From the IMG/VR virus record IMGVR_UViG_3300010281_000272, positions 1 to 30,391 of that record: a DNA stretch of 30,391 nucleotides; one strand, written 5' to 3'. Shown here piece after piece: positions 5,976 to 28,342 of this stretch; position 1 is the first letter of the stretch, and each line of letters starts with the position of its first letter. The notes under the pieces were generated by a model. That model saw only the letters and a program-made list of their open reading frames with translations. It had not been told where the DNA came from and did no database searches. This DNA is from a virus (taxonomy: Duplodnaviria > Caudoviricetes). A program made the translations under genes and the position numbers.

Positions 5976-6228
5976 TATCAGTGTGATAGCCCTATCCATG
6001 TGATAGGAGGTGGGGCCTATCACACAGATAGCCCCCCCTATCACAGGGATAGCCGAAGATATTAAAAGAAGATACCCATATACAGTAGCGCGCGGGGAAC
6101 TGGGAACCACCGAAAGGTCCGGCTTCGCCGGACAGTACCCCCAGCTAGGCCCTGCTGGGGAGGCGCCGTGACGATCTCCAGCAGGGCGGCCCTAAAGGCA
6201 CCACGAGCGGCGTAGCCGCTCCTTTCGG
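5976..6228 (+). repeat. Origin-like module copy 1: four TATC-N5-GATA boxes, AT-rich segment, four-way-junction fold
   Basis: Boxes at 5976, 5993, 6018, 6039; core 6053-6228 is visibly homologous to 9598-9780 and to the reverse complement of 28099-28285. Confidence 0.9.
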
Positions 6229-6314
6229 CTGGTCCAGAACCCGCAGCACAAATGTCGCACAAATGTTCTGCAGATAGACGCCGATCTGGCGTCCACGTAA
6301 GGGAGGTTGATCCT

Positions 6315-6692
6315 GTGACCACGATCTTGTCTCTGGCTGTCGCCGTTCCGGCTGGCTTGGCCGCCTGGCGGCTCGTGACCCCGCTTAGCCTTGCCGTGTT
6401 TTGGGTCTGTGGTGGCCGAAGGACGGCCTCCGGCACCGTGGGCAGGTGGCTGGCCCTCTCGGCCGGGGTGCTGGCTCCGACGGGCCTTATAGCCGCAATC
6501 TGGGCCGTTCTGTTGAACGACCCCACCACCTGGACGGCCCCGCAACCGTACCACCTCGTCCTGATGATGGTGTCCATCGGCCTCTCGCTCGGGTACTTCT
6601 CCAGCCGGCGGCGCCCCGGTACCGTGATCTGGCGGTGGCGGCATGAGCACGCGATCATAATGGAGAGGCGGGCTCAGAGGAGAGGGCTGTGA
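6315..6692 (+). CDS. Hypothetical membrane protein (about 3 TM segments), 125 aa
   Basis: RBS GGGAGGT before GTG 6315; long hydrophobic stretches and a basic C-terminal tail. Confidence 0.65.
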   Translation: MTTILSLAVAVPAGLAAWRLVTPLSLAVFWVCGGRRTASGTVGRWLALSAGVLAPTGLIAAIWAVLLNDPTTWTAPQPYHLVLMMVSIGLSLGYFSSRRRPGTVIWRWRHEHAIIMERRAQRRGL

Positions 6693-6935
6693 TGGTGCGC
6701 AGGTACGAGACGACCGCTCGGCAGCGCAGGCCGGGCGGTCATTTTGCGTGTGGCATTTCCGGTGTCATCCTCGCCTGGTGTCTTGGTAGGTTAGAGCGGC
6801 TGGCAAAACACGAAGCCCCGACAGGCGCGAGCGGCGCAAGCCGATTCGGTGTATACGCAGCCCTGATTTGCCAGCCGCCAAACCCGCTGACCCGCACCGC
6901 GCCTGGCTTGTGGGCATCGGTCCTCTTTCCCCGGC

Positions 6936-7041
6936 GTGGAACCCCCTGGTGGAAAGAGGTGTGGAAACGCCTGTGGAAAATTGCGTGGAAATCCCCGTGG
7001 AAGACTGCGTGGAAAAACCTGTGGAAATCAGCGTGGAAAAT
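6936..7041 (+). repeat. Phased array of nine GTGGAA (DnaA-box-like) motifs
   Basis: GTGGAA at 6936, 6949, 6961, 6973, 6985, 6997, 7009, 7021, 7033; exact 12-bp period except the first gap (13 bp); TGTGGAAAA at 6972 matches the reverse complement of TTWTNCACA. Confidence 0.85.
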
Positions 7042-7232
7042 GGTCAGGCCACGGCCTTGCGGGTGTGTATACACTGCCGAAGCCACATGTGGACAGGGTT
7101 TGGGCCTCGCATGTATACGATTGGGCTCTGGGGTGCCGTCTTGGGGTCACTTTCCCGGTCTATCTGTCGCTGTGTATACATCCGGACGGCTGACCACAGG
7201 CGACCTTGCGGTCGGTCTGTGTACATCCACGG

Positions 7233-7856
7233 TCACTGTATCCTGGCGAGAATGCGCAGGTGGTGTAGGTAGGCCCAGATGATGGCCGGTGCCAGGTCCT
7301 GCGTGGCCCCCTGGCGGCAACGGACCAAATCGTGGCACAGGTCGGCGACCAGGGAGGTGACTCCAGCCTGATAGGTGGATAGCTGGTCATACTGCATCTG
7401 CTCCGCCAAAGGCTCGGCGTAGGCCGGGTCACTGATGATCCGGCTGGCCCACGCCCGGACGGCTGGGTGGATAGTACCTGGCGGGTGGATCTTGAGCAGG
7501 TGGCACAGTATGGTGACGGCTATGGCCGCTACATCAGTCTGGGTCATGGGGGCGGTCCGATCCGTGACGACCCACTCCGCCAGGCGATCGGTGCAGATCC
7601 GGCGGATGATCTGCTCCACAGCCTGGCGGGCGCCCTGGTCGTCGCCGTCATCCGTGGTCACCCGGAGGCAAGCGTCCGGGGCCAGTATCTCCATCGGACG
7701 GGAGACCCGGACGGCCACCTCTGCGCCGGGGTACGCCGCGCACAGCTCCTGTCGGATCAGATCAGCCAGGGTGTCGGCGGAGGCCCACAGCGACACGCCG
7801 GGGGCGTCCGGCACCAGGCGGGCGGGGTAAACGACGTAATCGATGCGCTGGATCAT
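7233..7856 (-). CDS. Hypothetical protein, 207 aa
   Basis: RBS GAGGAGGG before ATG; globular-looking composition; no family recognised. Confidence 0.7.
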   Translation of the reverse strand: MIQRIDYVVYPARLVPDAPGVSLWASADTLADLIRQELCAAYPGAEVAVRVSRPMEILAPDACLRVTTDDGDDQGARQAVEQIIRRICTDRLAEWVVTDRTAPMTQTDVAAIAVTILCHLLKIHPPGTIHPAVRAWASRIISDPAYAEPLAEQMQYDQLSTYQAGVTSLVADLCHDLVRCRQGATQDLAPAIIWAYLHHLRILARIQ

Positions 7857-8027
7857 GGCAGCCCTCCTCTCAGAAACGACACACCCGGCCCCGTGTGGGA
7901 CCGGGTAACACTTCTCTGCGGTTCAGCCTGAATCCTCGGTATCCTCAATGATGGCCGGGCCCGTGCCCACCCGGACGATGTTGCCTCATTTCTGGCTCGG
8001 CCCCGTTGTGGAGCCGGGCGGTGCTTG

Positions 8028-8243
8028 TCACCACAAAGGAGCCAGTGCGGCTAGTTCGGCGTCGATCTCGGCTAGTTCCCGCTCCTGAAACAGGGAGGCC
8101 AGGCGACCGTCGCCGTTCAGTTCCTCAGTCAGTCGGTCCAGATACTCATATGACGTGATCCAGGCCCGCCGCCGCTTCAGTTGCTCCCGCCGGGCCGCTC
8201 GGTACTCCCAGTCGTAGTAGTCGTCATCGTACCAGTCGTACAC
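8028..8243 (-). CDS. Small hypothetical protein with an acidic/aromatic N-terminus, 71 aa
   Basis: RBS AGGAGGGG before GTG; sequence begins MYDWYDDDYYDWEY. Confidence 0.7.
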   Translation of the reverse strand: MYDWYDDDYYDWEYRAARREQLKRRRAWITSYEYLDRLTEELNGDGRLASLFQERELAEIDAELAALAPLW

Positions 8244-8318
8244 TGCAATCCCCTCCTGTTGGTGTGCCCAGCCCCGGCTGGGGCCTGGCGTCTTGGTTTG
8301 CTCGTCTTCTTGATTCTA

Positions 8319-8415
8319 TGTTAGCGTTGACGACAACAAAACACCATAGTCCCTTGTGTTTATTTAGCGTTGACGCCAACATACTATGTTGTTGTGGATG
8401 CTAACATGGTACACT
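8319..8415. promoter_or_regulatory. Divergent promoter region with three ~20-bp operator-like repeats
   Basis: TTAGCGTTGACGACAACA (8321), TTAGCGTTGACGCCAACA (8364), inverted copy TGTTGTTGTGGATGCTAA (8387-8404); TG-n-TACACT -10 at 8407-8415; TAGAAT -10 on the minus strand near 8313-8318. Confidence 0.7.
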
Positions 8416-8435
8416 CAAGATGAGAGGTGATAGCC

Positions 8436-8711
8436 ATGGGCGAGGAGCGGCTGCTGAGCGCAACAGAGGCCGGACGGGCGCTGGGCGTCCCTGCGGCTAC
8501 GGCCAGGTGGCGGGCGAAGCGGGCGCTGGAGGCCGGGGAGCCGGGCGTGACACGAGTGGGGCGGATGATCGTGGCTCCTGTGTCGGTCTGGGAGCGAGTG
8601 CTCCTTCGCGTTGATCCCCAGCAGAGGGGGCCGCGCCGGATCGGTGACCGGGCGTACCGGAAGCGCGAGCTGTTGGAGGAGCGGAAACGGGAGACCCCCG
8701 CCGAGCAGTGA
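8436..8711 (+). CDS. Small excisionase/MerR-like HTH DNA-binding protein, 91 aa
   Basis: RLLSATEAGRALGVPAATARWRAKR HTH plus wing TRVGRMIVAP; RBS GAGAGGTG. Confidence 0.7.
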   Translation: MGEERLLSATEAGRALGVPAATARWRAKRALEAGEPGVTRVGRMIVAPVSVWERVLLRVDPQQRGPRRIGDRAYRKRELLEERKRETPAEQ

Positions 8712-8772
8712 CCCGGCGGGGCGCTTCCATAAATGAAGCAGGCCGCCGGGTGTGATCCCAGCGGCCTTCTGC

Positions 8773-9135
8773 TCACGCATGATGTTCGATTTGGTTCGTG
8801 ACTTCGCCCTCGATCTCGTACCCACCGTACCGGATCACGTGCCGCCCGGCAACGGCCAGGGTCGGCAGGCCCGTGGCCTGGTGGATCGTCTCAGCCAGGC
8901 GCTTGGCGGTGGGACCGTCGGCCACATAACCCGCGTAGGTGTAGCCGGGAACCCGCACGTACACCCGGTACGTGTCACCTACCGTCATCACCTGGTCGGC
9001 CCCGGCCTCCCGGATCATCCGCTCGACAGTGGCGGCCAGCTGCCTGACCTCGGCTGGCATGGCAGCCATGCGGCGGGAACAGTCTTCCTCGATGGCCTTC
9101 GCGAGCTCGGTGATCGGGACTGCGGTCAGTTTCAT
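8773..9135 (-). CDS. Hypothetical protein, 120 aa
   Basis: Strong RBS AAGGAGGAG before ATG; upstream minus-strand promoter TTGCGT-17-TACAAT (9415-9387). Confidence 0.75.
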   Translation of the reverse strand: MKLTAVPITELAKAIEEDCSRRMAAMPAEVRQLAATVERMIREAGADQVMTVGDTYRVYVRVPGYTYAGYVADGPTAKRLAETIHQATGLPTLAVAGRHVIRYGGYEIEGEVTNQIEHHA

Positions 9136-9473
9136 TCTAACTCCTCCTTAGATTCCCCCGGCCTCTGCCGGGGGTGTGATGTATCGCCCGGCAGGGCGGT
9201 GGAACCTATGGAGCGGCTGGTAAGCCACCATCTTACTCCGCTGTTTGCGGAGCGGTTGCGGAGCGGTTGGGAGAGCGCCCGATGAGGCGCCGGACCTGCG
9301 CCTGGTGGTGCAGGCTGGCCCGTGGGCCAGTGTCTGGCCGGTGCGCTGGGGAGCGCCCGCCAGGGGTTGGGTTACTACCTGTAACCATTGTACACCTAGA
9401 CACACCTGGACGCAAGAGGTTTTGCAAGAGAATATTGACAATATCACCATATAATGATATAGAGAGTACCCCT

Positions 9474-9780
9474 TATCACTCGTGATAGGGGGTATCATTA
9501 GCGATAAGGGATGCCTCTTATCACGGGTGATAGGGGGTATCACGGCTGATAGGGGAGGGGTTATCACGGGTGATAACCCCCCTATCACCCCTGATAACCG
9601 AAGTTATTAATAGAAGATACCCATATACAGCGGTGCGCGTGGAACTGGGAACCACCGAGAGTCCGGCTTCGCCGGGAGGGGGGGTGCCACGACATAGGCC
9701 CCGGCCAGGTAAGGTACGGAGTGCCATTCACAGGCAGGGGCCTTGGTTCTGGATCGAGCGGCGCCAGCCGCTCCTTTCGG
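9474..9780 (+). repeat. Origin-like module copy 2: six TATC-N6-GATA boxes, AT-rich segment, four-way-junction fold
   Basis: Boxes at 9474, 9493, 9519, 9538, 9562, 9583, separated mostly by G/C tracts; core 9598-9780. Confidence 0.9.
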
Positions 9781-9798
9781 CGGATCTCTGATCCCATA

Positions 9799-9827
9799 TT
9801 GAGGATGTTGTCTAGTTGGTGTATGAT
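9799..9827 (+). promoter_or_regulatory. SigA-like promoter with no downstream ORF
   Basis: TTGAGG-17 bp-TATGAT. Confidence 0.45.
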
Positions 9828-9861
9828 GACAGCGCAAGTGGGTCCAGTCCACACGATCAGG

Positions 9862-9903
9862 AGAAGACGACCTGGTGCTTAGCGCCGGGCCGTCTTCTTT
9901 TTT
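9862..9903 (+). terminator. Intrinsic terminator with a + strand U-tract; may also stop the convergent recombinase transcript
   Basis: AGAAGACG-ACCTGGTGC / GCGCCGGGC-CGTCTTCT stem followed by TTTTT. Confidence 0.8.
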
Positions 9904-9950
9904 GCTCGTATTGCTAGTCCACGGGTCCGGGCGTGTCGCGGCCGGCATGA

Positions 9951-10922
9951 TCAATCGTCCATCCATCGGGCCAGGTCATCCAGCGACGGGGCGGCGTAGC
10001 GGGCCGTCGTGTCCACGCTGCTGTGCCCGGCCAGCCTGGCAGCCACGTGCAGGGGCATGGGTTCCTTCCGCAGACCATATTTTGACGGGTCAACCAAGGC
10101 GCTGATGAAGGTGGCTCGGAGGTCATGCGGCCCGAGGACGTATGGCAGACGGGCGTCCCGACCCAGCCGCTCCACGATATGGCGCACGCCTCGTACCGTG
10201 AGCGGCCCCCTCTCACCGATAATCACAGGAGCGGAGGGGCCATCCCACCACTCTCGCTGAGCGGCTGGCAGGCGGCCCCGGATCACCCATGCGTCCAGCC
10301 GCTGGCGGCGCTCGCCCTCCAGGTAGGCAGTCAGGGCTTCTCGGGCTTCCAGCACCAGCGGTACCCGGCGGCGCTTCCGGCCCTTTCCGTTGCGGATCAG
10401 CAGTTCACCGGAGCGGGGGCCGATGGTGATGTCGCCAAGCAGGAGGGGGCAGTGGTCGCGGGCGGTCTCCGGTGCGATCTCCCCGACTCGCGGCCCGGCG
10501 TAGCGGAGGAGACACACCAGGGCGGTCTCCAGCTGCCCGGCGGCCTCGGCGGCCCGTCTGACCGCCCGCCACTCGGAGAGGGTCAGGGCCCGGCCCTCAT
10601 CGGAGGGGGCCACATCCGTCAGGCGGGGGACTCTCCGGGCCGGGTTTGAGCGCCCTGTCCGGCCGGCGTGGTCCAGCAGCAGGGCGACGGACACCAGGCG
10701 GCGATTAACGGTGGAGGGCGCCTTGCCAGCCGCTCCAGAGTCCCGCCACTCCCGCACGTCGGCGGTGGTCACCTGCTCCGGCCCCTCGATCCCCTGTGCC
10801 TCCGCCCACGCCGCGAACGCCTCAGCATCGGCCAGGTAGGCCCTGATGCTCCGCTCGGACAGGGCGGTCTCGGTGGTCATTTCTGCGGCCCACGAGTCCA
10901 GCAGTTCAGCCCACTGGCTCAT
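9951..10922 (-). CDS. Xer-like tyrosine recombinase (resolvase/integrase family), 323 aa
   Basis: N-terminal SAM-like domain (LSERSIRAYLAD...KAPSTVNRRL); catalytic residues GPRVGEI (R), GKGRK (K), HDLR, GH, TARY (Y); no arm-binding N-terminal extension. Confidence 0.93.
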   Translation of the reverse strand: MSQWAELLDSWAAEMTTETALSERSIRAYLADAEAFAAWAEAQGIEGPEQVTTADVREWRDSGAAGKAPSTVNRRLVSVALLLDHAGRTGRSNPARRVPRLTDVAPSDEGRALTLSEWRAVRRAAEAAGQLETALVCLLRYAGPRVGEIAPETARDHCPLLLGDITIGPRSGELLIRNGKGRKRRRVPLVLEAREALTAYLEGERRQRLDAWVIRGRLPAAQREWWDGPSAPVIIGERGPLTVRGVRHIVERLGRDARLPYVLGPHDLRATFISALVDPSKYGLRKEPMPLHVAARLAGHSSVDTTARYAAPSLDDLARWMDD

Positions 10923-11161
10923 TTGACACGCACCGCCACGAATCGAGCATCCACCAGGCTCAGATCATCGCCTACCAGCGACTCCGGCGCCATCAGGGTG
11001 GCGGCCAACAGTTCGCAGGCTTCGTTCAATGTGACATCGCCTGGCGTCCCGTAAATACAGCGGGCCCAGCGGAGGAGCGTATCACGGTCCCGGCACGTGA
11101 TTCGGGCCACGAAGGTGACGGGCTGAGGCGCGGACTGGGGCTGTACAGTTTCTAGTGCCAT
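10919..11161 (-). CDS. Hypothetical protein, 80 aa, translationally coupled to the recombinase
   Basis: RBS AAGGAGTG; its TGA stop overlaps the recombinase ATG (ATGA). Confidence 0.6.
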   Translation of the reverse strand: MALETVQPQSAPQPVTFVARITCRDRDTLLRWARCIYGTPGDVTLNEACELLAATLMAPESLVGDDLSLVDARFVAVRVK

Positions 11162-11177
11162 CCTAGCGGCTCACTCC

Positions 11178-11283
11178 TTATTCGGACGTGTCGGGTTATC
11201 GGACAAGAAAATGCGGCCTTACAGCGGGGTCACAGGGCCATTTTGACCTGTATGTTGGTCCTCTAATACCCATTATCGGACAA
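11178..11283. other. Putative dif/res-like recombination site with accessory repeats
   Basis: Core TGGTCCTCTAA-TACCCA-TTATCGGACAA (11256-11283; 11-6-11, arms 8/11 symmetric); a second TTATCGGACAAG at 11196 and TTATTCGGAC at 11178; upstream of the recombinase operon. Confidence 0.65.
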
Positions 11284-11309
11284 GCTGTTACAACTTGCAA
11301 GTCTGAACA

Positions 11310-11386
11310 GATGAGACGATGATGAGACGGGCATGACTCAAGGATGAGATTTCCTACCCTTATCTGGTGTTACATTTTTCTATGAT
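11310..11386 (+). promoter_or_regulatory. Putative activator-dependent late promoter upstream of terS
   Basis: GATGAGAC (11310), GATGAGAC (11321), CATGACTC (11332, weak), GATGAGAT (11343) at an 11-bp period; -10 TATGAT at 11381 with no consensus -35. Confidence 0.6.
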
Positions 11387-11434
11387 GGGGCTCCGCAGGC
11401 AGCGGGGTCCACTTTTTTGGAGGAGGTGACCACC

Positions 11435-12013
11435 GTGGTTGACCTGCTGGATGCGGAGCGCCAGCCGTGGGAGCGCCAGAGGGGCGAGCCTAGCCGGGCG
11501 TTCCGTGCATTCGCCTTGTACCGTGACATGGGGGCTGAAAGGCGGAGTCTGCGGCGTCTGGCGGAAGAGATGGGTGTCTCACTCCGCCTGGTCTCCCGGT
11601 GGTCACGTAAGCATCACTGGGTCGAGCGGTGCGCCGCATGGGACGATGAGGTGGACCGCCTGGCCCGTGAGGAGCAGACCAGGGCAATTGCGGAGATGCG
11701 CCGCCAGCACGCTGAGGAGGCGGTGCGGCTCCGTCTGGCAGCGGTCAAGCGCCTGATGGAACAGCTGGAGGGATTCACGTTGGAGGATCTGGACCAGGCT
11801 GACCTTTTGAAGATCTGGGGCGAGGCGGTCAAGGTCGAGCGGCTGAGCCGCGGTGAGCCTGAGACTGTCCAACAGCAGCAGATCACCGGCCGGGACGGCG
11901 GCCCGGTGCGGGTAGCTGGACCGGACCTCAGCAAGCTGACAGACGCGGAACTGGCCCAACTGGAGTCCCTGCTCTCCAAGGCAGGTGATACAAGTGCTGG
12001 CACAGATACCTGA
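11435..12013 (+). CDS. terS: Terminase small subunit
   Basis: PWERQRGEPSRAFRAF...HTH...W; C-terminal QITGRDGGPV...DLSKLTDAEL; RBS GGAGGAGGTG; directly before terL. Confidence 0.8.
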   Translation: MVDLLDAERQPWERQRGEPSRAFRAFALYRDMGAERRSLRRLAEEMGVSLRLVSRWSRKHHWVERCAAWDDEVDRLAREEQTRAIAEMRRQHAEEAVRLRLAAVKRLMEQLEGFTLEDLDQADLLKIWGEAVKVERLSRGEPETVQQQQITGRDGGPVRVAGPDLSKLTDAELAQLESLLSKAGDTSAGTDT

Positions 12014-13439
12014 TCTGGAGGCCGTCCGCCAGGAACTCGCCCGGCGGCGGCTCCGGTCTTTTTTGGAGTATGACGGCCAGGGGCACTGGCGAACTGCCAG
12101 GCACCTCGAATTGCTGTGTGAAAAGTTGGAGGCCGTCGAGCGTGGCGAGATCAAGCGGCTGATGGTGTGCATGCCGCCCCGGCATGGCAAAAGCGAAGTG
12201 GTGTCCAAGAAGTACCCGGCCTGGTATCTGGGCCGGAACCCCTGGCACGAGGTCATCCTGACTTCCTATTCAGCGGAACTGGCCGCCGACTTCTCCAGGA
12301 TTGCCCGCGGTACGCTCCGGGATCGGGGCGACCTATGGGGCGTCAAGGTGGCATCTGACAGCGCCGCCGTTGGTCGGTGGGGCATCGAGGGCACCCGAGG
12401 CGGCCTGGTGGCGGCGGGTGTCGGCGGTCCCATCACAGGCCGGGGCGCTCACCTGGCCATCATCGACGATCCTGTGAAGAACGCCGAGGAGGCCAACTCG
12501 GCGGTGATCCGGGAGCGGGTCTGGCAGTGGTACCAGTCCACGCTACGGACACGCCTGGCCCCCGGCGGTGCCATCGTTCTGGTGATGACCCGCTGGCACG
12601 AGGACGACCTGGCCGGCCGCCTGCTCCGGCAGATGGAACAGGGCGGCGAACAGTGGGAGGTCGTCTGCATGCCCGCCCTGGCGGAGGAGGACGACCCGTT
12701 GGGCCGGGCGCCCGGCGAACCACTGTGGCCCGAACGTGGCTTTGACGCCCGCTGGGCGGCGGAAACCCGCACGGCGGTCGGCTCTTACGTGTGGGCCGCA
12801 CTCTACCAACAGCGCCCGTCACCTTCTGGTGGCGGGTTTTTCAAACGCTCCTGGTTCCGCTACTTCTCGGTGGAGACCAGCGGCAGCGAGACCTACTACG
12901 TTCTCCACGGCGAGTCCGGTGACACGCGGGTACTGGCCAGTAAGTGCTGGCGGTTCACCACCACGGACCCAGCGGCCACCCAGCAGGAACGCTCTGACTA
13001 CTTCGTGACCTGCCACTGGGGGGTCACGCCTGATAAAGACTTGCTCCTCCTGGACCTATTCCGGGAGAAGGCGGAGACGACCCGGCACCGGGCTATCATG
13101 GAGAACCTGTACCGCTCCTGGCGGCCAAGCCAGATGTTCGTTGAAGACCGAACCTACGGTCTGGCGATCATCCAGGACTGCAAGCGGCTTGGTCTCCCGA
13201 TCCGGCCCCTGAAGGCCGACACGGATAAGGTGAGCCGCGCCCGTCCTGTCCAGGCCCGGTACGAGATCGGAACGGTGTATCACCGGGAGGGTGCGCCCTG
13301 GCTGGCTGACCTGGAAGCGGAACTGCTGGCTTTCCCGCATGGGGAGCATGACGACCAGGTGGACTGCGTGGCTTACGCCGGGCTCCAGGTGGTCACCGGA
13401 GGCGGCGCCACAGTAACTGCGAAACCGAAGGGGTGGTGA
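11985..13439 (+). CDS. terL: Terminase large subunit (start may be GTG 11994)
   Basis: Walker A MPPRHGKS, Walker B AIIDDP, MTRWHEDDL, nuclease domain TTDPA...HDDQVD. Confidence 0.96.
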   Translation: MIQVLAQIPDLEAVRQELARRRLRSFLEYDGQGHWRTARHLELLCEKLEAVERGEIKRLMVCMPPRHGKSEVVSKKYPAWYLGRNPWHEVILTSYSAELAADFSRIARGTLRDRGDLWGVKVASDSAAVGRWGIEGTRGGLVAAGVGGPITGRGAHLAIIDDPVKNAEEANSAVIRERVWQWYQSTLRTRLAPGGAIVLVMTRWHEDDLAGRLLRQMEQGGEQWEVVCMPALAEEDDPLGRAPGEPLWPERGFDARWAAETRTAVGSYVWAALYQQRPSPSGGGFFKRSWFRYFSVETSGSETYYVLHGESGDTRVLASKCWRFTTTDPAATQQERSDYFVTCHWGVTPDKDLLLLDLFREKAETTRHRAIMENLYRSWRPSQMFVEDRTYGLAIIQDCKRLGLPIRPLKADTDKVSRARPVQARYEIGTVYHREGAPWLADLEAELLAFPHGEHDDQVDCVAYAGLQVVTGGGATVTAKPKGW

Positions 13440-14878
13440 CGGTGCTGACTGATATGGAATTCCTGAGTCCCGGCGAGGCGTGGCCGCCACCCTCGGAGGT
13501 GGAGCGGTTGGAACGGTACCACGCCAACCGCCTGCTGTTCGATGGGCGCCACGAACTGGTGTATCGGGACTGGAGCCGCTTCCTCCGGGACGACGGCGCC
13601 CTGGCGATTAAGCTGGTTTTGAATTGGCATAGGCGACTGAGCACCCTTTGGGGCGACCTGCTCCTCGGGGAACCACCCCGAATCCATGCGGGTGATAGCG
13701 GCTCGGTAGAGGAGCAGACTCTGACCCGGCTGATCACCCAGAACCGCCTCTTTTCGGTGGCGTACGCAACGGTGATCGACGCCAGCCGCTACGGTGTCGG
13801 CATTTTCAAGGTCCGCAGCGACGGAAAGCGGGCGGTGATCGAGCCCCAGAACCCAAGCTGCTGGTTCCCGGTGGTCTCGGTGGACAACCTGCATGAGATA
13901 ACCGCCCACGTGCTGGCCTGGCCTGTGGAAGCCACGGTGACCGGGCTGCTCGGTAAGCAGCGCAAGAAGTACATCCGGGTGGAGATCCACCGTAAGGGGG
14001 AAATTGAAAATCGGCTCTATGAGCTTCAGGACACCTGGATTGGCCGCCAGGTGCCCTTGACTACCCTCCCGGAATATGCCAGCCTGCCTCAGACCCAGCG
14101 GACCGGCGTGGACGGCTTCTTGATCGTCCCGTACACCACGATAGAGACGAGTGATGCGCCGTACGGGCCGGATGACTACTCCGACCTGGATTCGATCATC
14201 CAGGAAATGGAATGCCGGTTTGCACAAATTTCCAGAATTCTGGACAAACACGCCGATCCGTCGATGTACGGCCCACCGCTGACTGGCCTGGACGGCGACG
14301 GCGACACGATGATCGGCGGTAGCCACTACATCGCAGTCCAGCCCGGCGAACAGACGCCGGGTTATCTTGTGTGGGATGGGCAGTTGGAGGCGGCCTTCCG
14401 CGAGATCGACCTGCTGATGCAGCAGCTGTATCTCCTCAGTGAGACCAGCCCGGCCGCGTTCGGGAAGCTGGAGGGCGGCATTCAGAGCGGAACGGCTTTA
14501 CAACGGCTGATGTTGGCCCCGTTGAAGAGGGCGGAGCGGATCAGACAGCAACTGGACCCGGCTCTCCGCACAACCATCCAGACGGCGGCGGCCCTGGAAG
14601 CGGCCCACGGGCTGAATAATGCGGTACCGCTGCCGAACCTGACCATCGAGTGGCAGGACGGCCTGCCCATCGACGAGACCGAAGCCACCACCGTCGAGAC
14701 CCAGCGGTACGCGGCGGGTCTGACCAGCCTGGAGGCGTCCCTGCGGCGGCTGTACGGCCTTGAGGGCGAGGCCCTGACCGCTGAAATAGAGCGCATCAAG
14801 GCTGAGCGGGCGGTCAGCGCCCCGGACGAGCGGCCCCGGATCACGCTGGATGATGTCGGCGGCGCCGGGGGTGAGTAG
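13433..14878 (+). CDS. Portal protein (SPP1 gp6-like)
   Basis: 481 aa after terL; LNWHRRLSTLW...GEPP, G-DDYSDL, SGTALQRL motifs. Confidence 0.88.
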   Translation: MVTVLTDMEFLSPGEAWPPPSEVERLERYHANRLLFDGRHELVYRDWSRFLRDDGALAIKLVLNWHRRLSTLWGDLLLGEPPRIHAGDSGSVEEQTLTRLITQNRLFSVAYATVIDASRYGVGIFKVRSDGKRAVIEPQNPSCWFPVVSVDNLHEITAHVLAWPVEATVTGLLGKQRKKYIRVEIHRKGEIENRLYELQDTWIGRQVPLTTLPEYASLPQTQRTGVDGFLIVPYTTIETSDAPYGPDDYSDLDSIIQEMECRFAQISRILDKHADPSMYGPPLTGLDGDGDTMIGGSHYIAVQPGEQTPGYLVWDGQLEAAFREIDLLMQQLYLLSETSPAAFGKLEGGIQSGTALQRLMLAPLKRAERIRQQLDPALRTTIQTAAALEAAHGLNNAVPLPNLTIEWQDGLPIDETEATTVETQRYAAGLTSLEASLRRLYGLEGEALTAEIERIKAERAVSAPDERPRITLDDVGGAGGE

Positions 14879-20056: not shown

Positions 20057-20383
20057 ATGGCAATCATCGAACTCGGCGGCAAGGAGCGCACGCTCCGGTA
20101 TGACTACAACGCCTTGGCCGATCTGGAGGAGCGGGCTGGTCTCAGCATTCAGGCTCTCCTAGACGACCAGCGACTCGGCCTGGCGACCATCCGGGCCATC
20201 ATCTGGGCCGGGCTCCGGCATCGCGACAAGGGCCTGACCCCCGCTCAGGTCGGCATCTGGCTCCAGCAGTACATGACCAGCGGTGGCGACCTCCAGGCGC
20301 TTATGGATGCCGTCCAGCGGGCTCTGGAGGAGTCCGGCCTGTTCAAGGCGGCGGCTGGGACTGACGATGAGGGAAACGGATAA
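20057..20383 (+). CDS. Tail assembly chaperone (gpG-like)
   Basis: IELGGKERTLRYDYNALADLEE; position between the tail tube and tape measure genes. Confidence 0.85.
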   Translation: MAIIELGGKERTLRYDYNALADLEERAGLSIQALLDDQRLGLATIRAIIWAGLRHRDKGLTPAQVGIWLQQYMTSGGDLQALMDAVQRALEESGLFKAAAGTDDEGNG

Positions 20384-20736: not shown

Positions 20737-20742
20737 TGCGCT

Positions 20743-22620
20743 GTGGAAGTCGGTGCCGTTTCGGTACGGCTCAACCTGGATGTCAGCCGGCTCCAGGCCC
20801 AGCTTCAGGGGGCGAAGGCCACAATTACTCGATTTTTCAGTTCGGCGGGGTTCAAGGAGTACCAGTCCCAGATGCGCGTCGCCAGCGTGGCCATCAGCGC
20901 CGCTCTCGGCCTGGCTGGGCGGAGTGCCATCACGGCGGCCGGTCAGATCCAGGACGCCCAAACGGCGTTCGCCAAGTTCCTCGGCTCGGCGGAGGAAGCG
21001 GAGCAGTTCGTGACGGCGCTCCAGCGGTTCGCGACCAAGACCCCGTTTGACTTCTCTGGCTTGCAGGACGCCGCGAAGCGGCTTCTGGCGCTTGGCTTCT
21101 CCGGTGAGTCCGTGTTGCCTATCCTGCGCCGGGTGGGCGATGCCGTGGCAGGGATGGGCGGCTCCTCTGCGGATGTCGAGGGCCTTGTGACGGTGCTCGG
21201 CCAGGTTCGCGCCAAGGGCCGGGCCACCGCTGAGGAGATGCTCCAGCTAACCGAGAGAGGGGTCAACGCGTGGGACTACCTGGCCAAGCGGTTGGGTGTG
21301 ACCATCCCGGAGGCCATGGAGCATGTGTCTAAGGGCGCCGTGGACGCCGGAACGGCCTTGGAAGCCATCCTGGAGGGCGTGGATCAGGACTTCGGCGGGA
21401 TGATGGGTGAGCAGGCGAAAAACCTGAATGCACAGCTGGCAAACGTGAAGGACAACCTCTGGCAGGTGTTCGGCCAGGTTGGCTTGAGAATCGCAGAGGC
21501 CATCGGACCCCACCTGGAGCGGATCGCTGACTGGCTCGGTGAACTGGCCGCCAGGATCAAGGCATTCGGCCTGCGCGAGGCGCTAGAGCAGATGGTGCCG
21601 GAAAGCGTCAAAATCGCCATCATCGGCATCGCTGTAGCCCTGGCGACCGCCCTGATCCCGGCGCTGATCAGCACCATCGCCACGATGTGGCCTGTCATCC
21701 TAGTCGTGCTGGCCCTGACCGCCGTGGCCTATGTCTTGGTCAAGACATGGGACTCGGCCGTCAAAGTGCTCAAGGCTGTATGGCGCACGCTGAGGGCGGA
21801 ATGGGGGTTTGTGAAGGCCAGCTTTGTGGCCGGTTTCGCCATTTTGAAGGCGGGTCTGGCCACGTTCCTGCAGTACACCGTCGGCATGCTCGTCAAGTTT
21901 GTGGGCGCTCTAGCGGATGCCTTCTCCTTCCTCGAACACGTACCCGGCCTTGGTGGGCTCTACGCTTCGATGCGTCAGGGTATCCACGGGCTTGACAACC
22001 TGATCACCGAGTTTGGGGAGTCATCCCGACAGGGTATGGTGGAGGCCGTCGCCAACGTCAAGGCCGCAGGGGCTGAGGTGGTGGACGCAGCAAAGGACCA
22101 GTTCGCAGCCATGAAGGAGTTCGGACGCGATGCAGCGGGCGTCGTTAGTGACTTTTTCAAGGAGAAGGACAAGCCGCCCCTGCCAGAGGTGGGGGATGAC
22201 GCCAAGTACGCCTCCGACCAGCTGGGCGACCTCAGCGGCACGGCCAACACGGCGGCCGGCGGCATGGACGCCCTCCGGGAGTCCGCCGAGAAGGCCGGAA
22301 GCGCCGTCCGGGAGGCATTCTCCGGCTTCCGTGCCTACGCTCTCGGCGAGGTCAACTGGCGTTTGGGCGCCCTGGCTCCTGACTGGCAGAGCCTGGCCGC
22401 CCAGCAGTACGCCAGCGCCAACCGCTTCGCGGCGGGGCTGCCGGCGGCGGCCTATGCCGCCGTCCCGGCCACCAGCACCCTGACCGTGGGCGGCGTGGTG
22501 CGGGTCGAGGGCGTTAATTCCCGCGGCGACCTGGTGGCTGTGACCCGGCTCCTGGCCGATGACCTTAGAGCGGAGGCTGAGCGGTATCCGGCGGCTCCGT
22601 CGCAGAGGAGGTGGCGGTGA
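20743..22620 (+). CDS. Tape measure protein, 625 aa
   Basis: FATKTPFDFSGL...LGQVRAKGR...EEMLQLTERG tape-measure domain; hydrophobic mid-section; RBS GGAGGTG. Confidence 0.92.
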   Translation: MEVGAVSVRLNLDVSRLQAQLQGAKATITRFFSSAGFKEYQSQMRVASVAISAALGLAGRSAITAAGQIQDAQTAFAKFLGSAEEAEQFVTALQRFATKTPFDFSGLQDAAKRLLALGFSGESVLPILRRVGDAVAGMGGSSADVEGLVTVLGQVRAKGRATAEEMLQLTERGVNAWDYLAKRLGVTIPEAMEHVSKGAVDAGTALEAILEGVDQDFGGMMGEQAKNLNAQLANVKDNLWQVFGQVGLRIAEAIGPHLERIADWLGELAARIKAFGLREALEQMVPESVKIAIIGIAVALATALIPALISTIATMWPVILVVLALTAVAYVLVKTWDSAVKVLKAVWRTLRAEWGFVKASFVAGFAILKAGLATFLQYTVGMLVKFVGALADAFSFLEHVPGLGGLYASMRQGIHGLDNLITEFGESSRQGMVEAVANVKAAGAEVVDAAKDQFAAMKEFGRDAAGVVSDFFKEKDKPPLPEVGDDAKYASDQLGDLSGTANTAAGGMDALRESAEKAGSAVREAFSGFRAYALGEVNWRLGALAPDWQSLAAQQYASANRFAAGLPAAAYAAVPATSTLTVGGVVRVEGVNSRGDLVAVTRLLADDLRAEAERYPAAPSQRRWR

Positions 22621-22967
22621 TGTCTGATCTGTGGGGAGAGACCCCGCTCAAGGTGGTGAGCATGGCCCGACCCAAGACAACCGTCGGCCTCACCGAACGG
22701 CCGGTGATCCCGGCCCCCGGAGCCAGCGGCCCGCAGTCCATCCTGATGGGCACCGGAAGGCTTCGCCGGCGCCGGGAGATACGGGGCCTGGCGACTCCGG
22801 CTGAATACGATGCCCTGGAGGCCGACTATGAGGCCCTGGTGGTCCGCACGGTGACCTTGGCTGACGGCATGGTGATGCGGGCCATGATCGCAAGTCTGGA
22901 GGCGGACGAGGTGGAGGGGACCGGTGGTTCCCTCCTCTCCTATACCATGACGCTGGTGGAAGCGTGA
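22620..22967 (+). CDS. Putative minimal distal tail (Dit-like) protein
   Basis: Position after the TMP; ERPVIP, Q-MG, YTMTLVEA terminus; TGATG coupling. Confidence 0.6.
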   Translation: MSDLWGETPLKVVSMARPKTTVGLTERPVIPAPGASGPQSILMGTGRLRRRREIRGLATPAEYDALEADYEALVVRTVTLADGMVMRAMIASLEADEVEGTGGSLLSYTMTLVEA

Positions 22968-22981
22968 GGGGGTGACCGACC

Positions 22982-25060
22982 GTGTTTCCAATCCCTGAGC
23001 AGATCAGAAGCCTTCTGAAATCCCGAAGCATGGTCGGCCCCTCCGCCCCCTCGGCGGTGGTTCGATTCGACTTGTCCAGGCTGGCTGGCAAGCCGTACGG
23101 TGAGTGGCCATCCGTGCCCCTCTCCAACCCGCGGGGCATCGCCTGGCGGCGGAGTGACCGGACGTGGATCATTGCCCAGAACTCCCCCCGTGCCCTGGTT
23201 CAGTGCGACCAGGCCGGGAATGTGATCCAGTCGTGGGATATAAACGCCTCAATGATCGGCATTGACCTGGACAGCACCGATGATGACCTCGTGTGGATCG
23301 CCGACTACTACTCGGGCGTCCTGGCCGTGCGGCTCAGCACCGGAGCCATCGATGTAGACCGGGTGATCACAGACCTCCCATATATCACTGCCGTCTGCGC
23401 CTTGCCGGACACCATCTGGGTTGGTTCTGGATACAATTTCCAAAGGAAGATCGCCGTCTATGACCGCCAGGACTGGACTCTCCTGGCGACGATCACCCCG
23501 CCCGTGGGGCCACGGGACATGACGTGGGATGGCCGCTACGTGTGGCTGGCGGGCGACCGGGACATCGCGGCCATCGACCCGGAGACCCTGGAGGCGGTGC
23601 CCGGTCAGGTGGTGAGCGTCCAGGGAGCCATCCGGCTGTACGGGATCGCCGTCGCGGATGACTCATTCGTGGTGACGGACAATGGCAGGATCTACCGGGT
23701 CCACCTGCCCAGCTTGACCGTGCGGCCCGAGCGACTGAGAGTTTCCAAGGAGAAGGGCGCCGTTGCCCAGCGGGCCATGATCTCCTGGCCGAACGGCAGC
23801 CCCTATGACCCCAGAGACCTGCCGGGCTACTACAGCCCCGACCGGGGGATCGACCCCCCGGAGGCCGTGAACGGGTGGAAAGACGTGGTGGTCCCTGGTG
23901 CCGACATCACCATCGAGATGGGCTACGGCGAGGACCGTTCCCTGGCGTTCGCGGGCCAGGTGGATGAGGTATCCATCGACGTGGAGGGCGGGGACTCCGG
24001 GGCCGACTACAGCATCTCCATCGACTGCCGGGACCACGGGTGGCGGCTCCTGGACCAGACGGTCACCAACGATCAGGGCGAGTATTACTTGGCGTACGAA
24101 GACCCAGATGGTATCGAAGCCAGCCTGATCGCCCGTGACCTGCTGATTCGGGCCGGGTTCGCACCCGACAAGGTTTTCACCGAACCGACGGGCATCGTGG
24201 TCCAGTGCAAGGTTTTTGAGAGGCAAAGCTACGCTGACGCCCTGGAGTGGCTGAGCAACATCACGGGCTACGAACTGATGCTTTATGACGACGGGAGCGC
24301 CTACTGGCGCTATCCGTCTGACAGGCAGCCCGCCGAGTGGCGCCAGCCGCTCACGCTGGAGGGCACGGACTGGACACCTCTCGGCCATGCGCCGATTGTG
24401 GCGGGCTCCATGGTGCTGGAGGACCCCACCGAGACGGACGAGGACGGAGCCCCGGTGCGCTACACCGAGGGCGTGGACTATGAGGTGGACCTGGCGGCCG
24501 GCGCAGTCCGGCGGCTGGACGGCGGAGCCATCCCCGACGGCGGCCGGGTGCTGGCCTCGTACGTCTATGCGGCGTGGGTGTTCAAGGAAGGGGAAGACCT
24601 CTTCCGGGTCGGCTACAAGCTGACCCGCCGGGACCAGTACGCCCGAATCCGGGTGGCTGGCGAGGCCACGGACCCGGATGACCCAACCCAGAAATTCCCG
24701 GTCTACGGCACCTGGACACACCCGATCCCGGAGGCGTACGGCCTGCCTCCGGCCAAGGTCCAGTTCGTCGAAATTCGGGAGTTGGACAGTGCCGAGAAGT
24801 GCCAGGCCGCCGCCAACCAGCTAGGCCACGACATGATCCCCCACGCTCGGGAAGTACGGTTCGCGGCAATCACCGTCCCCTGGCTCCAGCCCGGCGACTG
24901 CATCCAGATCGTGGAGAGCAGCACGACCATCAGCGAGGTCTACCGCATCTCCGAACTGGAGATCGAGTACGGCCCGGACGGGGCGATCATGTACGGCGTA
25001 GCCCACCACTACGGTTACGCCCCGCCCCCGGCCACTGAGGAGGTGACACCCGATGCCTAA
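22982..25060 (+). CDS. Baseplate hub/Tal-like protein with inserted beta-propeller and beta-sandwich domains
   Basis: Hub motifs IEMGYG...FAGQVDEV...IDCRD and PWLQPGDCIQI; propeller-like repeats PRGIAW, IGIDLD, PRDMTWDG, LYGIAV; YTEGVDYEVDLAAGAV module. Confidence 0.7.
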   Translation: MFPIPEQIRSLLKSRSMVGPSAPSAVVRFDLSRLAGKPYGEWPSVPLSNPRGIAWRRSDRTWIIAQNSPRALVQCDQAGNVIQSWDINASMIGIDLDSTDDDLVWIADYYSGVLAVRLSTGAIDVDRVITDLPYITAVCALPDTIWVGSGYNFQRKIAVYDRQDWTLLATITPPVGPRDMTWDGRYVWLAGDRDIAAIDPETLEAVPGQVVSVQGAIRLYGIAVADDSFVVTDNGRIYRVHLPSLTVRPERLRVSKEKGAVAQRAMISWPNGSPYDPRDLPGYYSPDRGIDPPEAVNGWKDVVVPGADITIEMGYGEDRSLAFAGQVDEVSIDVEGGDSGADYSISIDCRDHGWRLLDQTVTNDQGEYYLAYEDPDGIEASLIARDLLIRAGFAPDKVFTEPTGIVVQCKVFERQSYADALEWLSNITGYELMLYDDGSAYWRYPSDRQPAEWRQPLTLEGTDWTPLGHAPIVAGSMVLEDPTETDEDGAPVRYTEGVDYEVDLAAGAVRRLDGGAIPDGGRVLASYVYAAWVFKEGEDLFRVGYKLTRRDQYARIRVAGEATDPDDPTQKFPVYGTWTHPIPEAYGLPPAKVQFVEIRELDSAEKCQAAANQLGHDMIPHAREVRFAAITVPWLQPGDCIQIVESSTTISEVYRISELEIEYGPDGAIMYGVAHHYGYAPPPATEEVTPDA

Positions 25061-25937
25061 CCCGGCACGTGAAATCATGCGCATCCAGGATCGCCGGGCC
25101 GCCCTCGGCTCCGTACCAGGCCAGCAGCAGACATTCGGCGAGCGGAGCGGCTGGGCCGGCCAGGTGACCGGGCTCGGAGTGGCGGGGAATCCCCTCCTCA
25201 GTGGGAATGTGATCCTGGTGCCCGGTGGCGGCGTGACCATGGTCCAGGACCCGGCTTCGGGCCGGATCATCATTTCGGCCTCCGGGAGCGGCGGGGGCGG
25301 CGTCGGCTACCCCCGGTATGACCCGGACGAGCCGCCTGCGATCCCCAGCCAGTGGGATGATGAGTTCAACACCAGCGTCCTCGATCCGAAGTGGAGTGTG
25401 CTGAACGTCCATGGCCAGGGCGAGTTCCAGGTGGGGGAAGTAATCAGCATGTTGTCCGCCAGGGGCGCCCATGATGACGTGGACCCCATGGCCCTGCTCC
25501 AGCCTGCGCCGAGCGGCCCTTGGACCGTCACAGCCAAGTTCGTCAACGCCCAGCAGTACCTCGGGAGCACGAGCACTGACAAGTCCGCTTTCGTCGGCAT
25601 CGCAGTGGCGCCTGCAGAGGGCGAAGGTGACGCACTGGACACGTGGATGATCGGGCGCTACAGCGGCGCATACGCCTACCTGCGATCTGAGCAGTGGTCC
25701 ACCCCCGCAGGTTGGAAAGGGTCGAAGGGCACCCACACCTACTATTCACCGTGTGGATACTTGCGGGTCGTCTGGGATGGCTCCAACCTGTCCCACTGGC
25801 ACTCCCCGGACGGCCTCGGCTGGTATCGGTGGACTGCGCCGTATGACCCCGGCTGGACCCCCGGCCGCATCGGAATCGCCGTCCGTGGTGCCGTGGGGCC
25901 GTCGTATGTGGATTGGTTCCGAGTGACCACCAGCTAA
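25053..25937 (+). CDS. Putative receptor-binding tail protein with a concanavalin/lectin-like C-terminal domain
   Basis: WDDEFNTSVLDPKW, YLRVVWDGSNLSHWHSPDGLGW, VDWFRV motifs; last tail gene. Confidence 0.7.
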   Translation: MPNPAREIMRIQDRRAALGSVPGQQQTFGERSGWAGQVTGLGVAGNPLLSGNVILVPGGGVTMVQDPASGRIIISASGSGGGGVGYPRYDPDEPPAIPSQWDDEFNTSVLDPKWSVLNVHGQGEFQVGEVISMLSARGAHDDVDPMALLQPAPSGPWTVTAKFVNAQQYLGSTSTDKSAFVGIAVAPAEGEGDALDTWMIGRYSGAYAYLRSEQWSTPAGWKGSKGTHTYYSPCGYLRVVWDGSNLSHWHSPDGLGWYRWTAPYDPGWTPGRIGIAVRGAVGPSYVDWFRVTTS

Positions 25938-26014
25938 GCGAATAGCGCACGTAGGGCCGCCTGACGCCGGGGCGGCCCTTTCTGATGCAGGCGGCGGGAT
26001 CGGAGGTGAGGCGG

Positions 26015-26218
26015 ATGGAGGAGGGCCTGATGAAGCTGGCCATCGAGCAGGGACTCTGGGCGGCACTCTTTGTGGGGCTGCTGCTGTGGACCTTGCGCCA
26101 GAACAACGCTCGTGAAACCCGGTACCTGGAGATCATCAAGACACTTGGCGAGGAGGTTCGGGCACGACTGGACAGGCTGGAGAGTCTGGCCTCCCGTGGC
26201 CGCCGGGATGACGGATAG
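26015..26218 (+). CDS. BhlA/UviB-family holin-like protein
   Basis: LAIEQGLWAALFVGLLLWTLRQNNARETRY; RBS GGAGGTG. Confidence 0.85.
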   Translation: MEEGLMKLAIEQGLWAALFVGLLLWTLRQNNARETRYLEIIKTLGEEVRARLDRLESLASRGRRDDG

Positions 26219-26273
26219 AGCAAAACGGGCCGCTGGCACACGCTGGCGGCCCTCTCTCATGGAGGTGATACCT

Positions 26274-27128
26274 ATGGCAACCCGGATCGTCCTGGACCCC
26301 GGCCACGGCGGCTGGGACCCCGGCGCTGTGGCGAACGGGATCGTTGAGAAGGACTACCAGCTGGCCATCGGACTGCGGCTCCGGGATGCCCTCCTCGCCC
26401 GCTATGCGGACGTGGAGGTCCGTATGACCAGGGAGACGGACGCCTCGGTGGACCCGGCGGGCATGAGTCTGCCGCCTGACACGGCGAGACTGGCCCGCGA
26501 ACTCCAGGCCAGGTGCAACATCGCCAACGGCTGGCCGGACTCCGTGCTGATCTCCCTGCATCACGACGCCGCTGGTGACAGCCGGGCCCGTGGCGGAACG
26601 ATCTACGTGTATGGCCCGCAGTCGTGGGTGGCAGCTGTGGCCCCTGACGGCAAGATCAACCACCGGGCGCCCCGCAGCTACCAACTGGCGCAGGCCATGG
26701 AGCCGATCTTCCAGGAGACGCTGGCGAAACACGGCATCCCCTGCAACGGGATCAAGGCGGGTGATTTTCAGGTCCTCCGCGCCACGGCAGGGCGGGCCGT
26801 GCTGGTCGAGGCATTCTTCAGCACCTCACCTCTGGACGCCGCCGCCGCCAAGACGGAGGCTTTCAAGGTAGACCTGACGGACGCCTACTGCAGGATGATT
26901 GGAACCGCCCTTGGTCTGCGCGAGAAGGCCCCGGCCCCCTCCGGCCCCCGGCCCGTCCGGGTCGTCCTGCCCAGCGGCAAGGCCATCACCGGGGAGCTGC
27001 GGGACTCCCTGACCTGGATCGAGGTCGGCGGGGTCTGGTGCCCACTCCGGGCGTGGGCAGAACTGCTGGGCTTCGAGGTCGGATGGGATCAGCAGACATA
27101 CACCGCAGCCGTAAGGCTCCCGGACTAG
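26274..27128 (+). CDS. Endolysin, N-acetylmuramoyl-L-alanine amidase (Amidase_3) with a C-terminal cell-wall-binding domain
   Basis: IVLDPGHGG-DPGA, EKD, ISLHHD, AVLVE motifs; C-terminal PLRAWAELLGFEVGWD; RBS GGAGGTG. Confidence 0.93.
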   Translation: MATRIVLDPGHGGWDPGAVANGIVEKDYQLAIGLRLRDALLARYADVEVRMTRETDASVDPAGMSLPPDTARLARELQARCNIANGWPDSVLISLHHDAAGDSRARGGTIYVYGPQSWVAAVAPDGKINHRAPRSYQLAQAMEPIFQETLAKHGIPCNGIKAGDFQVLRATAGRAVLVEAFFSTSPLDAAAAKTEAFKVDLTDAYCRMIGTALGLREKAPAPSGPRPVRVVLPSGKAITGELRDSLTWIEVGGVWCPLRAWAELLGFEVGWDQQTYTAAVRLPD

Positions 27129-27143
27129 AGAGGAGGATGCTCC

Positions 27144-27569
27144 ATGACTGTGACGCTTACCCAGACCCAGCTACTCCTGGCCGCTATTGGCCTGTCCGTG
27201 ATTGTGACCCTGATTATCGGCCCCATCGCCCTGCTGACCCGGCGTGTGCCTGCGTCCACCGTGCGGACGGTCCTGGACGGGGCGGAGCAAGTGGCTCGTG
27301 TGGCGGAGGCCATCCTGCCGGACGGCACCCTGCCGGATAAGATCGCCCGCTACGCCGGCATGGCCGTGGCTGCCGCCGAGCAGATGTTCGATGTGAGCCA
27401 GCGGCAGGACAAGTACACCTATGCCGATGACCTGGTGCGGCAGGCCCTCCGGGCGGCCGGCGTGCCGGAGGAGCAGATCGAGCGGCTGGGCGGAGTGATC
27501 CAGGGCGCCATCGAGGCGGCTGTCCTGGCCCTGCCTGACAGTCACAAGACGGAGGCCGGGGGGAAATAG
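27144..27569 (+). CDS. Holin (LL-H-like)
   Basis: Single N-terminal TM segment; AVAAAEQM...K...A; IEAAV motif. Confidence 0.75.
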   Translation: MTVTLTQTQLLLAAIGLSVIVTLIIGPIALLTRRVPASTVRTVLDGAEQVARVAEAILPDGTLPDKIARYAGMAVAAAEQMFDVSQRQDKYTYADDLVRQALRAAGVPEEQIERLGGVIQGAIEAAVLALPDSHKTEAGGK

Positions 27570-27586
27570 CCCTCCGGCCTCTTTTT
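27552..27586 (+). terminator. Intrinsic terminator ending the late operon
   Basis: GAGGCCGGGGGG / CCCTCCGGCCTC stem followed by TTTTT. Confidence 0.85.
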
Positions 27587-27616
27587 CGCTATCTCTTATG
27601 AAGGAGTGAACCACGG

Positions 27617-27709
27617 ATGGCCAAACTCCACACCTGTCCCGAGTGCGGCGCAGACATCCCGCCGCTCAGCCCGGTCTGTCCGTCCTGCGGCGCCCCGAGC
27701 CCTTGCTGA
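27617..27709 (+). CDS. 30-aa zinc-ribbon micro-protein (absent from the ORF track)
   Basis: Translated by hand: MAKLHTCPECGADIPPLSPVCPSCGAPSPC; two CPxCG knuckles; RBS AAGGAGTG at 27601. Confidence 0.65.
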   Translation: MAKLHTCPECGADIPPLSPVCPSCGAPSPC

Positions 27710-27734
27710 GGGTAGCCGTGGCGCCAGGCTGGCG

Positions 27735-28034
27735 CTACCGCGTGCGCTCCAGTTCTCGCAGGCCCATGACGATCCGGCCGGCCAGCCGCCTGATGCGCCT
27801 GGTGTTCACGGACCGGGCGCCGAAGAAGTGGTTGAAGACCGACTCGCACAGGCGCAAGACGGCCATCGGGTCCGGCCAGGCATCAGCCAGGCCCTCCAGG
27901 AGGTCGCGGATCTCCGGTTCGTACTCGTCCTCTGGTGCGCCGATGGACAGGAGCCCCATCGGGTCGGTCTGGTTCACCGCACGGGTCACTACGGCTGTTA
28001 CGGCCGCAAGCCGGTCCTGATCTCGCATCGTCAT
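27735..28034 (-). CDS. DUF1871/YugE-like small helical protein, 99 aa
   Basis: VNQTDPMGLLSIGAPEDEYEPEIRDL motif; RBS AAGGAGG before ATG 28034. Confidence 0.7.
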   Translation of the reverse strand: MTMRDQDRLAAVTAVVTRAVNQTDPMGLLSIGAPEDEYEPEIRDLLEGLADAWPDPMAVLRLCESVFNHFFGARSVNTRRIRRLAGRIVMGLRELERTR

Positions 28035-28098
28035 CGTTCCTCCTTCTGGCCTGCCTGAGAATGATGGCTGGGTGCTGGTCGGTGGGCTTCTGGGGCCG

Positions 28099-28342
28099 CC
28101 GAAAGGAGCGGCTGGCGCCGCTCTGCTGCCAGAACGGCCCACTGCCCGGTGAATGGCACTCCGTGCTGTTCCTGGCAGGGGGCCTGTAGCGGCACAAACC
28201 CCACCCGGCGAAGCCGGACCTTCGGCGGGTTCCCTGTCCCCTTGTGCGCCGCATATGTATGTATAACTTCTATATATAACTTCGGGTGTGTCTACACACA
28301 TCCCCCTCCTGTGTCTTGGCACACCCCTTGTGTCAGCACACA
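28099..28342 (-). repeat. Origin-like module copy 3: three TGTG-N6-CACA boxes, AT-rich segment, four-way-junction fold
   Basis: Boxes at 28287, 28310, 28329; the reverse complement of 28099-28285 aligns to 9598-9780 (CCGAAGTTAT..., TCCGGCTTCGCCGGG, ACGGAGTGCCATTCAC, GAGCGGCGCCAGCCGCTCCTTTCGG). Confidence 0.88.

Follow-up and report, generated by a model that had tools for sequence, protein, structure and literature searches.

What are three intergenic modules that share one scaffold and carry three different kinds of palindromic box, in a phage whose replication initiator gene holds no such array? We analyzed a 30,391-nucleotide stretch of DNA from a virus of the Caudoviricetes (IMG/VR record IMGVR_UViG_3300010281_000272, positions 1 to 30,391; herein the window), which is that of a temperate siphophage. 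On balance we favor an interpretation, drawn from sequence comparison, in which the modules are origins of the lambda or SPP1 type that lie outside the initiator gene; site 2 would likely be that of the phage's own initiator, and the boxes of sites 1 and 3 would likely suit other versions of the initiator in its family. The features on which the argument turns are as follows (ORF, open reading frame).

5976..6051, plus strand: site 1 array, four CTATC-N5-GATAG boxes starting at 5976, 5993, 6018 and 6039; likely iterons
6053..6089, plus strand: site 1 AT-rich tract, repeats of 13-bp period; likely unwinding element
6095..6234, plus strand: site 1 hairpin block, with a closing stem, two fixed hairpins and one variable hairpin
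9474..9596, plus strand: site 2 array, six TATC-N6-GATA boxes; likely iterons of the phage's own origin
9598..9631, plus strand: site 2 AT-rich tract, repeats of 13-bp period
9640..9786, plus strand: site 2 hairpin block
28287..28342, minus strand: site 3 array, three TGTG-N6-CACA boxes; likely iterons
28248..28285, minus strand: site 3 AT-rich tract, repeats of 13-bp period
28093..28240, minus strand: site 3 hairpin block, with the same ORF downstream as an array-less block in another contig (L009)
3557..4528, minus strand: winged-helix (HTH_36, O-like) replication initiator, no internal repeat array; probable start near 4456

Anatomy of the three modules

All three modules follow a common order: an array, one base, CCGAAG (at 6053, 9598 and, on the minus strand, 28285), an AT-rich tract made in each module of two GAAG(A/T)TA repeats of 13-bp period, a GGGAACC-like sequence and a hairpin block. 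The copies, their order and the single-base spacing are present at the coordinates given in the original prediction, which was made from the sequence alone, and they stand far above chance. No array of at least three identical 4-N-4 palindromes arose when the window was resampled 100 times under a Markov model; matches to the TATC boxes number 7 against 0.18 expected and 5 against 0.38 expected, with almost none outside the arrays. Within each array, spacing and half-site are the same in every box. The window is 64% G+C and has just six AT-rich patches, three of which are the tracts of the modules. All three sites are intergenic, at distances of 1.4, 4.9 and 23.6 kb from the gene for the initiator; the ORFs that overlap them (6062-6658, 9607-9966 and 27883-28254) match no Pfam or PHROG family, in agreement with the earlier view that no copy sits in a credible gene.

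In its predicted fold, the downstream block of ~125 nt has a closing stem, a pair of near-invariant hairpins and a long hairpin that varies. Its folding z-scores lie between -0.9 and -4.9, neither strand being consistently preferred, and covariation among seven related sequences is not above that of shuffles. Adjoining site 3, a D12-class adenine methyltransferase gene is followed by an unassigned ORF (28447-30388); the pair is probably a restriction-modification system.

Box classes and replication initiators

In-gene arrays of this kind are iterons in lambda. The same is described for SPP1 in the relevant passages of PMC5737612. Viral contigs were scanned for three boxes in a row of each type. 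Among the matches listed, TATC-N6-GATA triplets came from 119 loci, 99 of them inside an ORF of at least 80 codons; 56 of these 99 ORFs match initiator families and 11 match tail proteins, and at 70% identity 39 of the 60 clusters are initiator matches. In 28 of these 39 clusters the 50 bases after the array are more AT-rich than the 50 before it (means of 0.72 and 0.66). TATC-N5-GATA triplets were found at 119 loci, with 59 in an ORF of at least 100 codons; these form 27 clusters, 10 of which have initiator matches. Foreign TGTG-N6-CACA triplets occur at 10 loci, four inside initiator genes, three of these only with TGA read-through. Because initiators amount to about one gene per phage, their enrichment among the arrays is large. 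Every viral array inspected keeps to one box class per gene. Two loci, the HTH_36 initiator L165 and L091, which has weak winged-helix matches only, have the same G/C-run spacers as the window modules, and in both the last box is followed by a CC..GAAG AT tract. Three AT-rich viral contigs (L171, L176 and L178) carry initiator genes that are open only if TGA encodes a residue, with TGTG-N6-CACA arrays spaced by G runs.

The initiator gene of the window contains no array of at least three palindromes, as had been stated for iterons. A kin initiator (L211, at 943-1881 in G019) has 12 internal GTGCA-N-TGCAC palindromes in two interleaved sets of six, then 12-bp repeats; its gene is followed by a DnaB gene, and it forms the conventional-array counterpart to the array-less initiators. 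Exactly where L211 carries its repeats, the window protein and 11 homologues have ~55 residues fewer in the alignment. Since both the array and these ~55 linker residues are missing, the phage's origin likely lies elsewhere.

Within the family, the winged helices of two versions (P0003 and P0004) are 40 to 47% identical to the others and that of P0002 is 69 to 73% identical to the window type; identity in the C-terminal domain is 81 to 93%. The divergent winged helices suggest versions with different DNA specificity. A structure model was poor (mean pLDDT 44.8) and was excluded from fold comparison.

Array exchange and the alternative readings

A decayed related prophage (in genome G005) has modules at the same three sites, in flanking DNA that is 75 to 92% identical to the window. 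Its site 1 holds three TATC-N6-GATA boxes, where the window has four of the N5 type; its site 2 holds five TATC-N6-GATA boxes (six in the window); and its site 3 holds one TGTG box, two TATC-N6-GATA boxes and one hybrid TGTC/GATA box. From CCGAAG onward, sites 2 and 3 of G005 share 96 identical bases, and from the first hairpin on its site 3 shares 55 identical bases with site 3 of the window; the front half of the module (array plus AT tract) was therefore copied between sites, an exchange seen in G005 itself. The prophage there is split into two pieces 55 kb apart (300378-306413 and 361931-370171), transposon parts (an AAA ATPase, with ISL3 and Mu-type transposases nearby) stand in place of its replication and immunity genes, and its amidase gene is frameshifted. 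No match to the initiator, helicase, cI or cro was found in 95 kb of G005, and none to the initiator genome-wide.

The six-box array of site 2 is covered in three of four other sequencing runs, where all six listed substitutions lie in spacers or box centers and none in the arms, with 1 to 5 further differences per contig outside that list. The site 2 array is stable across strains, and this site is the leading candidate for the origin that belongs to the phage itself; the arrays of the other two sites vary. Between CCGAAG and the first hairpin lie 65 to 68 bp in four modules and 76 bp in two, with 11 bp added in run X4; at site 2, a three-repeat form of the AT tract adds 10 to 11 bp (G005 and run X4). 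The difference, which goes back to one or two events, amounts to one helical turn and would suit a protein platform on double-stranded DNA. Over window positions 9647-9682, runs X4, X6 and X8 place the first hairpin behind different upstream sequence, and further module versions therefore exist. Just 3' of site 2 lies a likely small RNA of ~80 nt (window 9799-9905; L033 1835-1990) with its own promoter-like site and terminator; it is near-identical in G005, the promoter spacer differing, and has no Rfam match.

Beyond G005 the module is rare. Scaffold patterns matched this phage alone in viral contigs, one true homologue (L009) among 16 matches in genome contigs, and seven loci in metagenome contigs, three on the contig that holds this prophage and four by chance; BLAST of the core returned one insignificant match in phages and none in plasmids. 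An RNA model of the core, a search suggested with the original prediction, matched G005 (three sites) and G001 (one site) among 19 genomes of the order, and otherwise gave two weak matches (L182 and L183), L182 without an array. The hairpin pattern gave control-level matches outside G005 over 61 genomes of the class. Tandem TATC-N6-GATA pairs occur in G005 alone among the 19 genomes, and one or two each in 15 other genomes of 401 in the phylum; tandem TATC-N5-GATA pairs occur in none of the 19.

Our best reading is that origins appear to have moved out of the initiator gene and multiplied. The in-gene box classes, the array-less initiator and the arrays that differ at the same sites support the origin-like identity that had been proposed for the modules. 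Mechanistically, dimers of the winged-helix initiator would occupy the palindromic boxes and melt the 13-bp AT repeats next to them, and the phage's DnaB-like helicase would then be loaded; the hairpin block, ~66 or 76 bp downstream, may serve as a signal for priming or for a primosome once the DNA is unwound. Recombination, which exchanges the array-plus-AT front half between sites, could use the homology of the common scaffold. Once freed from the gene, the origin and the DNA-binding domain could change separately, and a genome with several arrays might remain able to replicate when its initiator is swapped, and a co-infecting relative might fire it. More tentatively, as a possibility rather than an expectation, the family as a whole may hold a panel of exchangeable origins keyed to initiator versions, so that the initiator of a superinfecting relative either replicates the prophage or is trapped by it, in what would be a multi-key origin system serving conflicts among related phages.

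Several observations weigh against the best reading. When the window and P0002 domains are compared with 55 initiators of known array, L165 (TATCAC-N2-GTGATA boxes, as at site 2) comes top, in a weak comparison (14 to 21 bits, ~19% pairwise identity) within a set of which 40 of 55 are N6-type. The P0003 and P0004 initiators are known without their own loci, so that array type and initiator version are not observed side by side. In the scan of viral contigs, 20 of the 119 N6 loci and 60 of the 119 N5 loci lack a spanning ORF and were left out of the classification, and the initiator shares for each box type stand without comparison palindrome types. The modules persist in G005 although no initiator was found there. 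In L009 the hairpin block stands before the same ORF as at site 3 without array or AT tract; the scaffold, first described as one unit, is real, and its hairpin block is separable. A TATC-N5-GATA cluster of five members (L278) has its triplet at the start of a cI-like gene, so these boxes can be operators; by eye, L291, L309 and L318 likewise have such a triplet at a cI-like gene start, and the class is apparently used for operators in another phage group. Finally, TATC-N6-GATA boxes predominate over all three sites of G005, which fits one initiator with several origins. This weakens the three specificities first proposed, if each is taken as fixed to its site.

That one initiator serves all three sites, as origins or fork-control sites, by tolerating N5 and N6 spacing and changed half-sites in the manner of SPP1 G38P, is nonetheless unlikely in our estimate. 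The occurrence of TATC-N6-GATA at all three G005 sites together with the hybrid TGTC/GATA box, the TATC half-site common to sites 1 and 2, and the G38P precedent as set out in passages of PMC5737612 and PMC6316719 all speak for such tolerance; the uniformity within each window array, the single box class kept by the viral genes inspected, and the divergent winged-helix versions in the family speak for discrimination.

Two promoter-like sequences bear on a different alternative.

5954..5959, plus strand: TTGACA hexamer ahead of array 1, a possible weak promoter into the module; TTGACA also precedes the site 1 array of G005
9435..9463, plus strand: TTGACA-17-TATAGA ahead of array 2, a possible weak promoter into the module; identical in G005

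With these kept in G005, an array-less block before the same ORF in L009, TATC-N5-GATA triplets at the cI gene in L278, and one-sided changes that preserve G-U pairing more often for the top strand, the arrays could be operators controlling a promoter ahead of a structured leader or small RNA. We regard this as improbable. A promoter scan made no call pointing into any block and called neither TTGACA site, and no array box, at up to one mismatch, lies at the cI-cro switch between 4790 and 4935. The block reaches the gathering score of no Rfam family (only sub-threshold microRNA matches were seen, on the palindrome array), where membership in a known noncoding RNA family would have told against the original prediction; its covariation, as above, does not exceed shuffles. 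The shift of spacing by a helical turn and the order of array then AT tract are also those of a protein platform and of initiator-gene origins, respectively. Contigs from RNA runs give almost no cover of the modules and are uninformative either way.

It is more doubtful still that the role of sites 1 and 3 is only to bind and deplete the initiators of competing phages, as decoys in a natural form of origin-based (PER) resistance. PER of Streptococcus phage Sfi21 is described, in the portions of PMC6356513 that deal with it, as a non-coding phage origin that an infecting phage can activate and that can bind the proteins of that phage; a prophage-borne PER-like region is also proposed there. The box types match repeat classes of initiators, and the arrays at sites 1 and 3 vary between strains, as decoys might. 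Against this, every site keeps its AT tract, the phasing of that tract and its hairpin block, which would be needless for binding alone, and PER is copy-number dependent by the same account (PMC6356513), whereas a prophage is single-copy. Least probable of all is a single functional origin with neutral duplicates or relics spread by recombination: intact modules do persist in decayed G005 and an array-less block in L009, but all three sites are occupied in two prophages, and box arms and hairpins stay intact while spacers drift.

Genomic setting and comparison with known systems

Around the modules the window has the following genes.

2199..3572, minus strand: DnaB-like replicative helicase, directly after the initiator gene in the leftward early operon
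4534-4896: cro, in the leftward early operon
4936-5541: cI
9951-10922: tyrosine recombinase
from 11417, rightward: head, tail and lysis genes

By the window annotation, the leftward early operon also holds RusA and late activator genes. Stretches of a 275-kb metagenome contig (L027, L030 and L031) match the prophage at 100% identity, and in that contig an ORF beyond the right end of the prophage looks by eye like a serine recombinase; close homologues of the initiator and recombinase carry the source label Symbiobacterium. The 11-bp motif TTAGCGTTGAC occurs at 4923 (minus strand) in the cI-cro interval and at 8321 and 8364 ahead of the ORF at 8436, and may be an operator or a shared promoter element. 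A fourth repeat element (6850-7235) consists of ~8 GTGGAAA units of 12-bp period, some of which we take to resemble DnaA boxes, and spaced TGTA(T/C)AC motifs; it is kept in G005 (304091-304609, L332) while its flanks drift, has no match in plasmids (6780-7260 searched), and could be another protein-binding array.

The hairpin block has two possible parallels. It resembles the primase origin of phage G4 in layout, with three hairpins in ~140 nt, and 11 of the 12 bases of the G4 primer hairpin are common to the bottom strand of the first window hairpin. In G4, CTG lies 3 nt after the stem, whereas in the window blocks it is absent or 15 nt away; the RNA model of the block does not score G4, and the G4-like 13-mer occurs two to seven times per host genome, near control frequency. 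With the motif at control frequency and the start triplet missing, the likeness is a lead only. The ssiA element of pAM-beta-1, according to the passage on it in PMC5703833, is a structured single-strand signal downstream of the origin; the position of the block fits such a primosome site. In phages of the Bacillota the block may represent a so far undescribed signal, for priming or for helicase loading. Likenesses to DnaA-trio, loxP, Fur and omega-heptad elements were dropped as misfits in polarity or base make-up.

PER resembles the modules as a non-coding phage origin that an infecting phage can activate; it differs in its copy-number dependence and in having the phage's own specificity, and the portions of PMC6356513 concerned describe no panel of different arrays. 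Closer is SPP1, a siphophage of the Bacillota in which more than one site combines repeats with AT-rich sequence. As set out in passages of PMC6316719 and PMC5737612, oriL lies inside gene 38, oriR is intergenic among moron genes, and G38P binds both with similar affinity. The window likewise has extra intergenic repeat-plus-AT sites far from the initiator gene; unlike SPP1, it has no site in the initiator gene, and its boxes differ between sites (three types), although those of G005 are largely uniform. Given that extra intergenic origins such as oriR are known, the arrangement is a variant and not, as first thought, wholly undescribed. The parts are known; we found no description in the open-access literature of such parts uncoupled from the gene, present in triplicate and exchanging their box type, nor of origin decoys or foreign-fired origins.

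To lambda-type origins (O-like, HTH_36 or DnaD-like) the modules are alike in their tandem palindromic boxes and one-sided A-rich repeat tract, and all three box classes occur inside such initiator genes. They differ in being non-coding, outside the initiator gene and three per genome, in a repeat period of 13 bp that is not codon-bound, and in the hairpin block, which the RNA model does not find beside the eight foreign loci searched (initiators or arrays). A lambda-type phage has its origin within the gene for the initiator, which ties origin and initiator together; in the window the two appear uncoupled, with the array lost from the gene, a DNA-binding domain that varies, and arrays of several types that move among three fixed sites with a shared scaffold. 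As a naturally occurring collection of matching components, the system would be suited to the study of changes in initiator specificity, and it bears on the question of prophages exploiting foreign initiators, be it for their own replication or against competitors.

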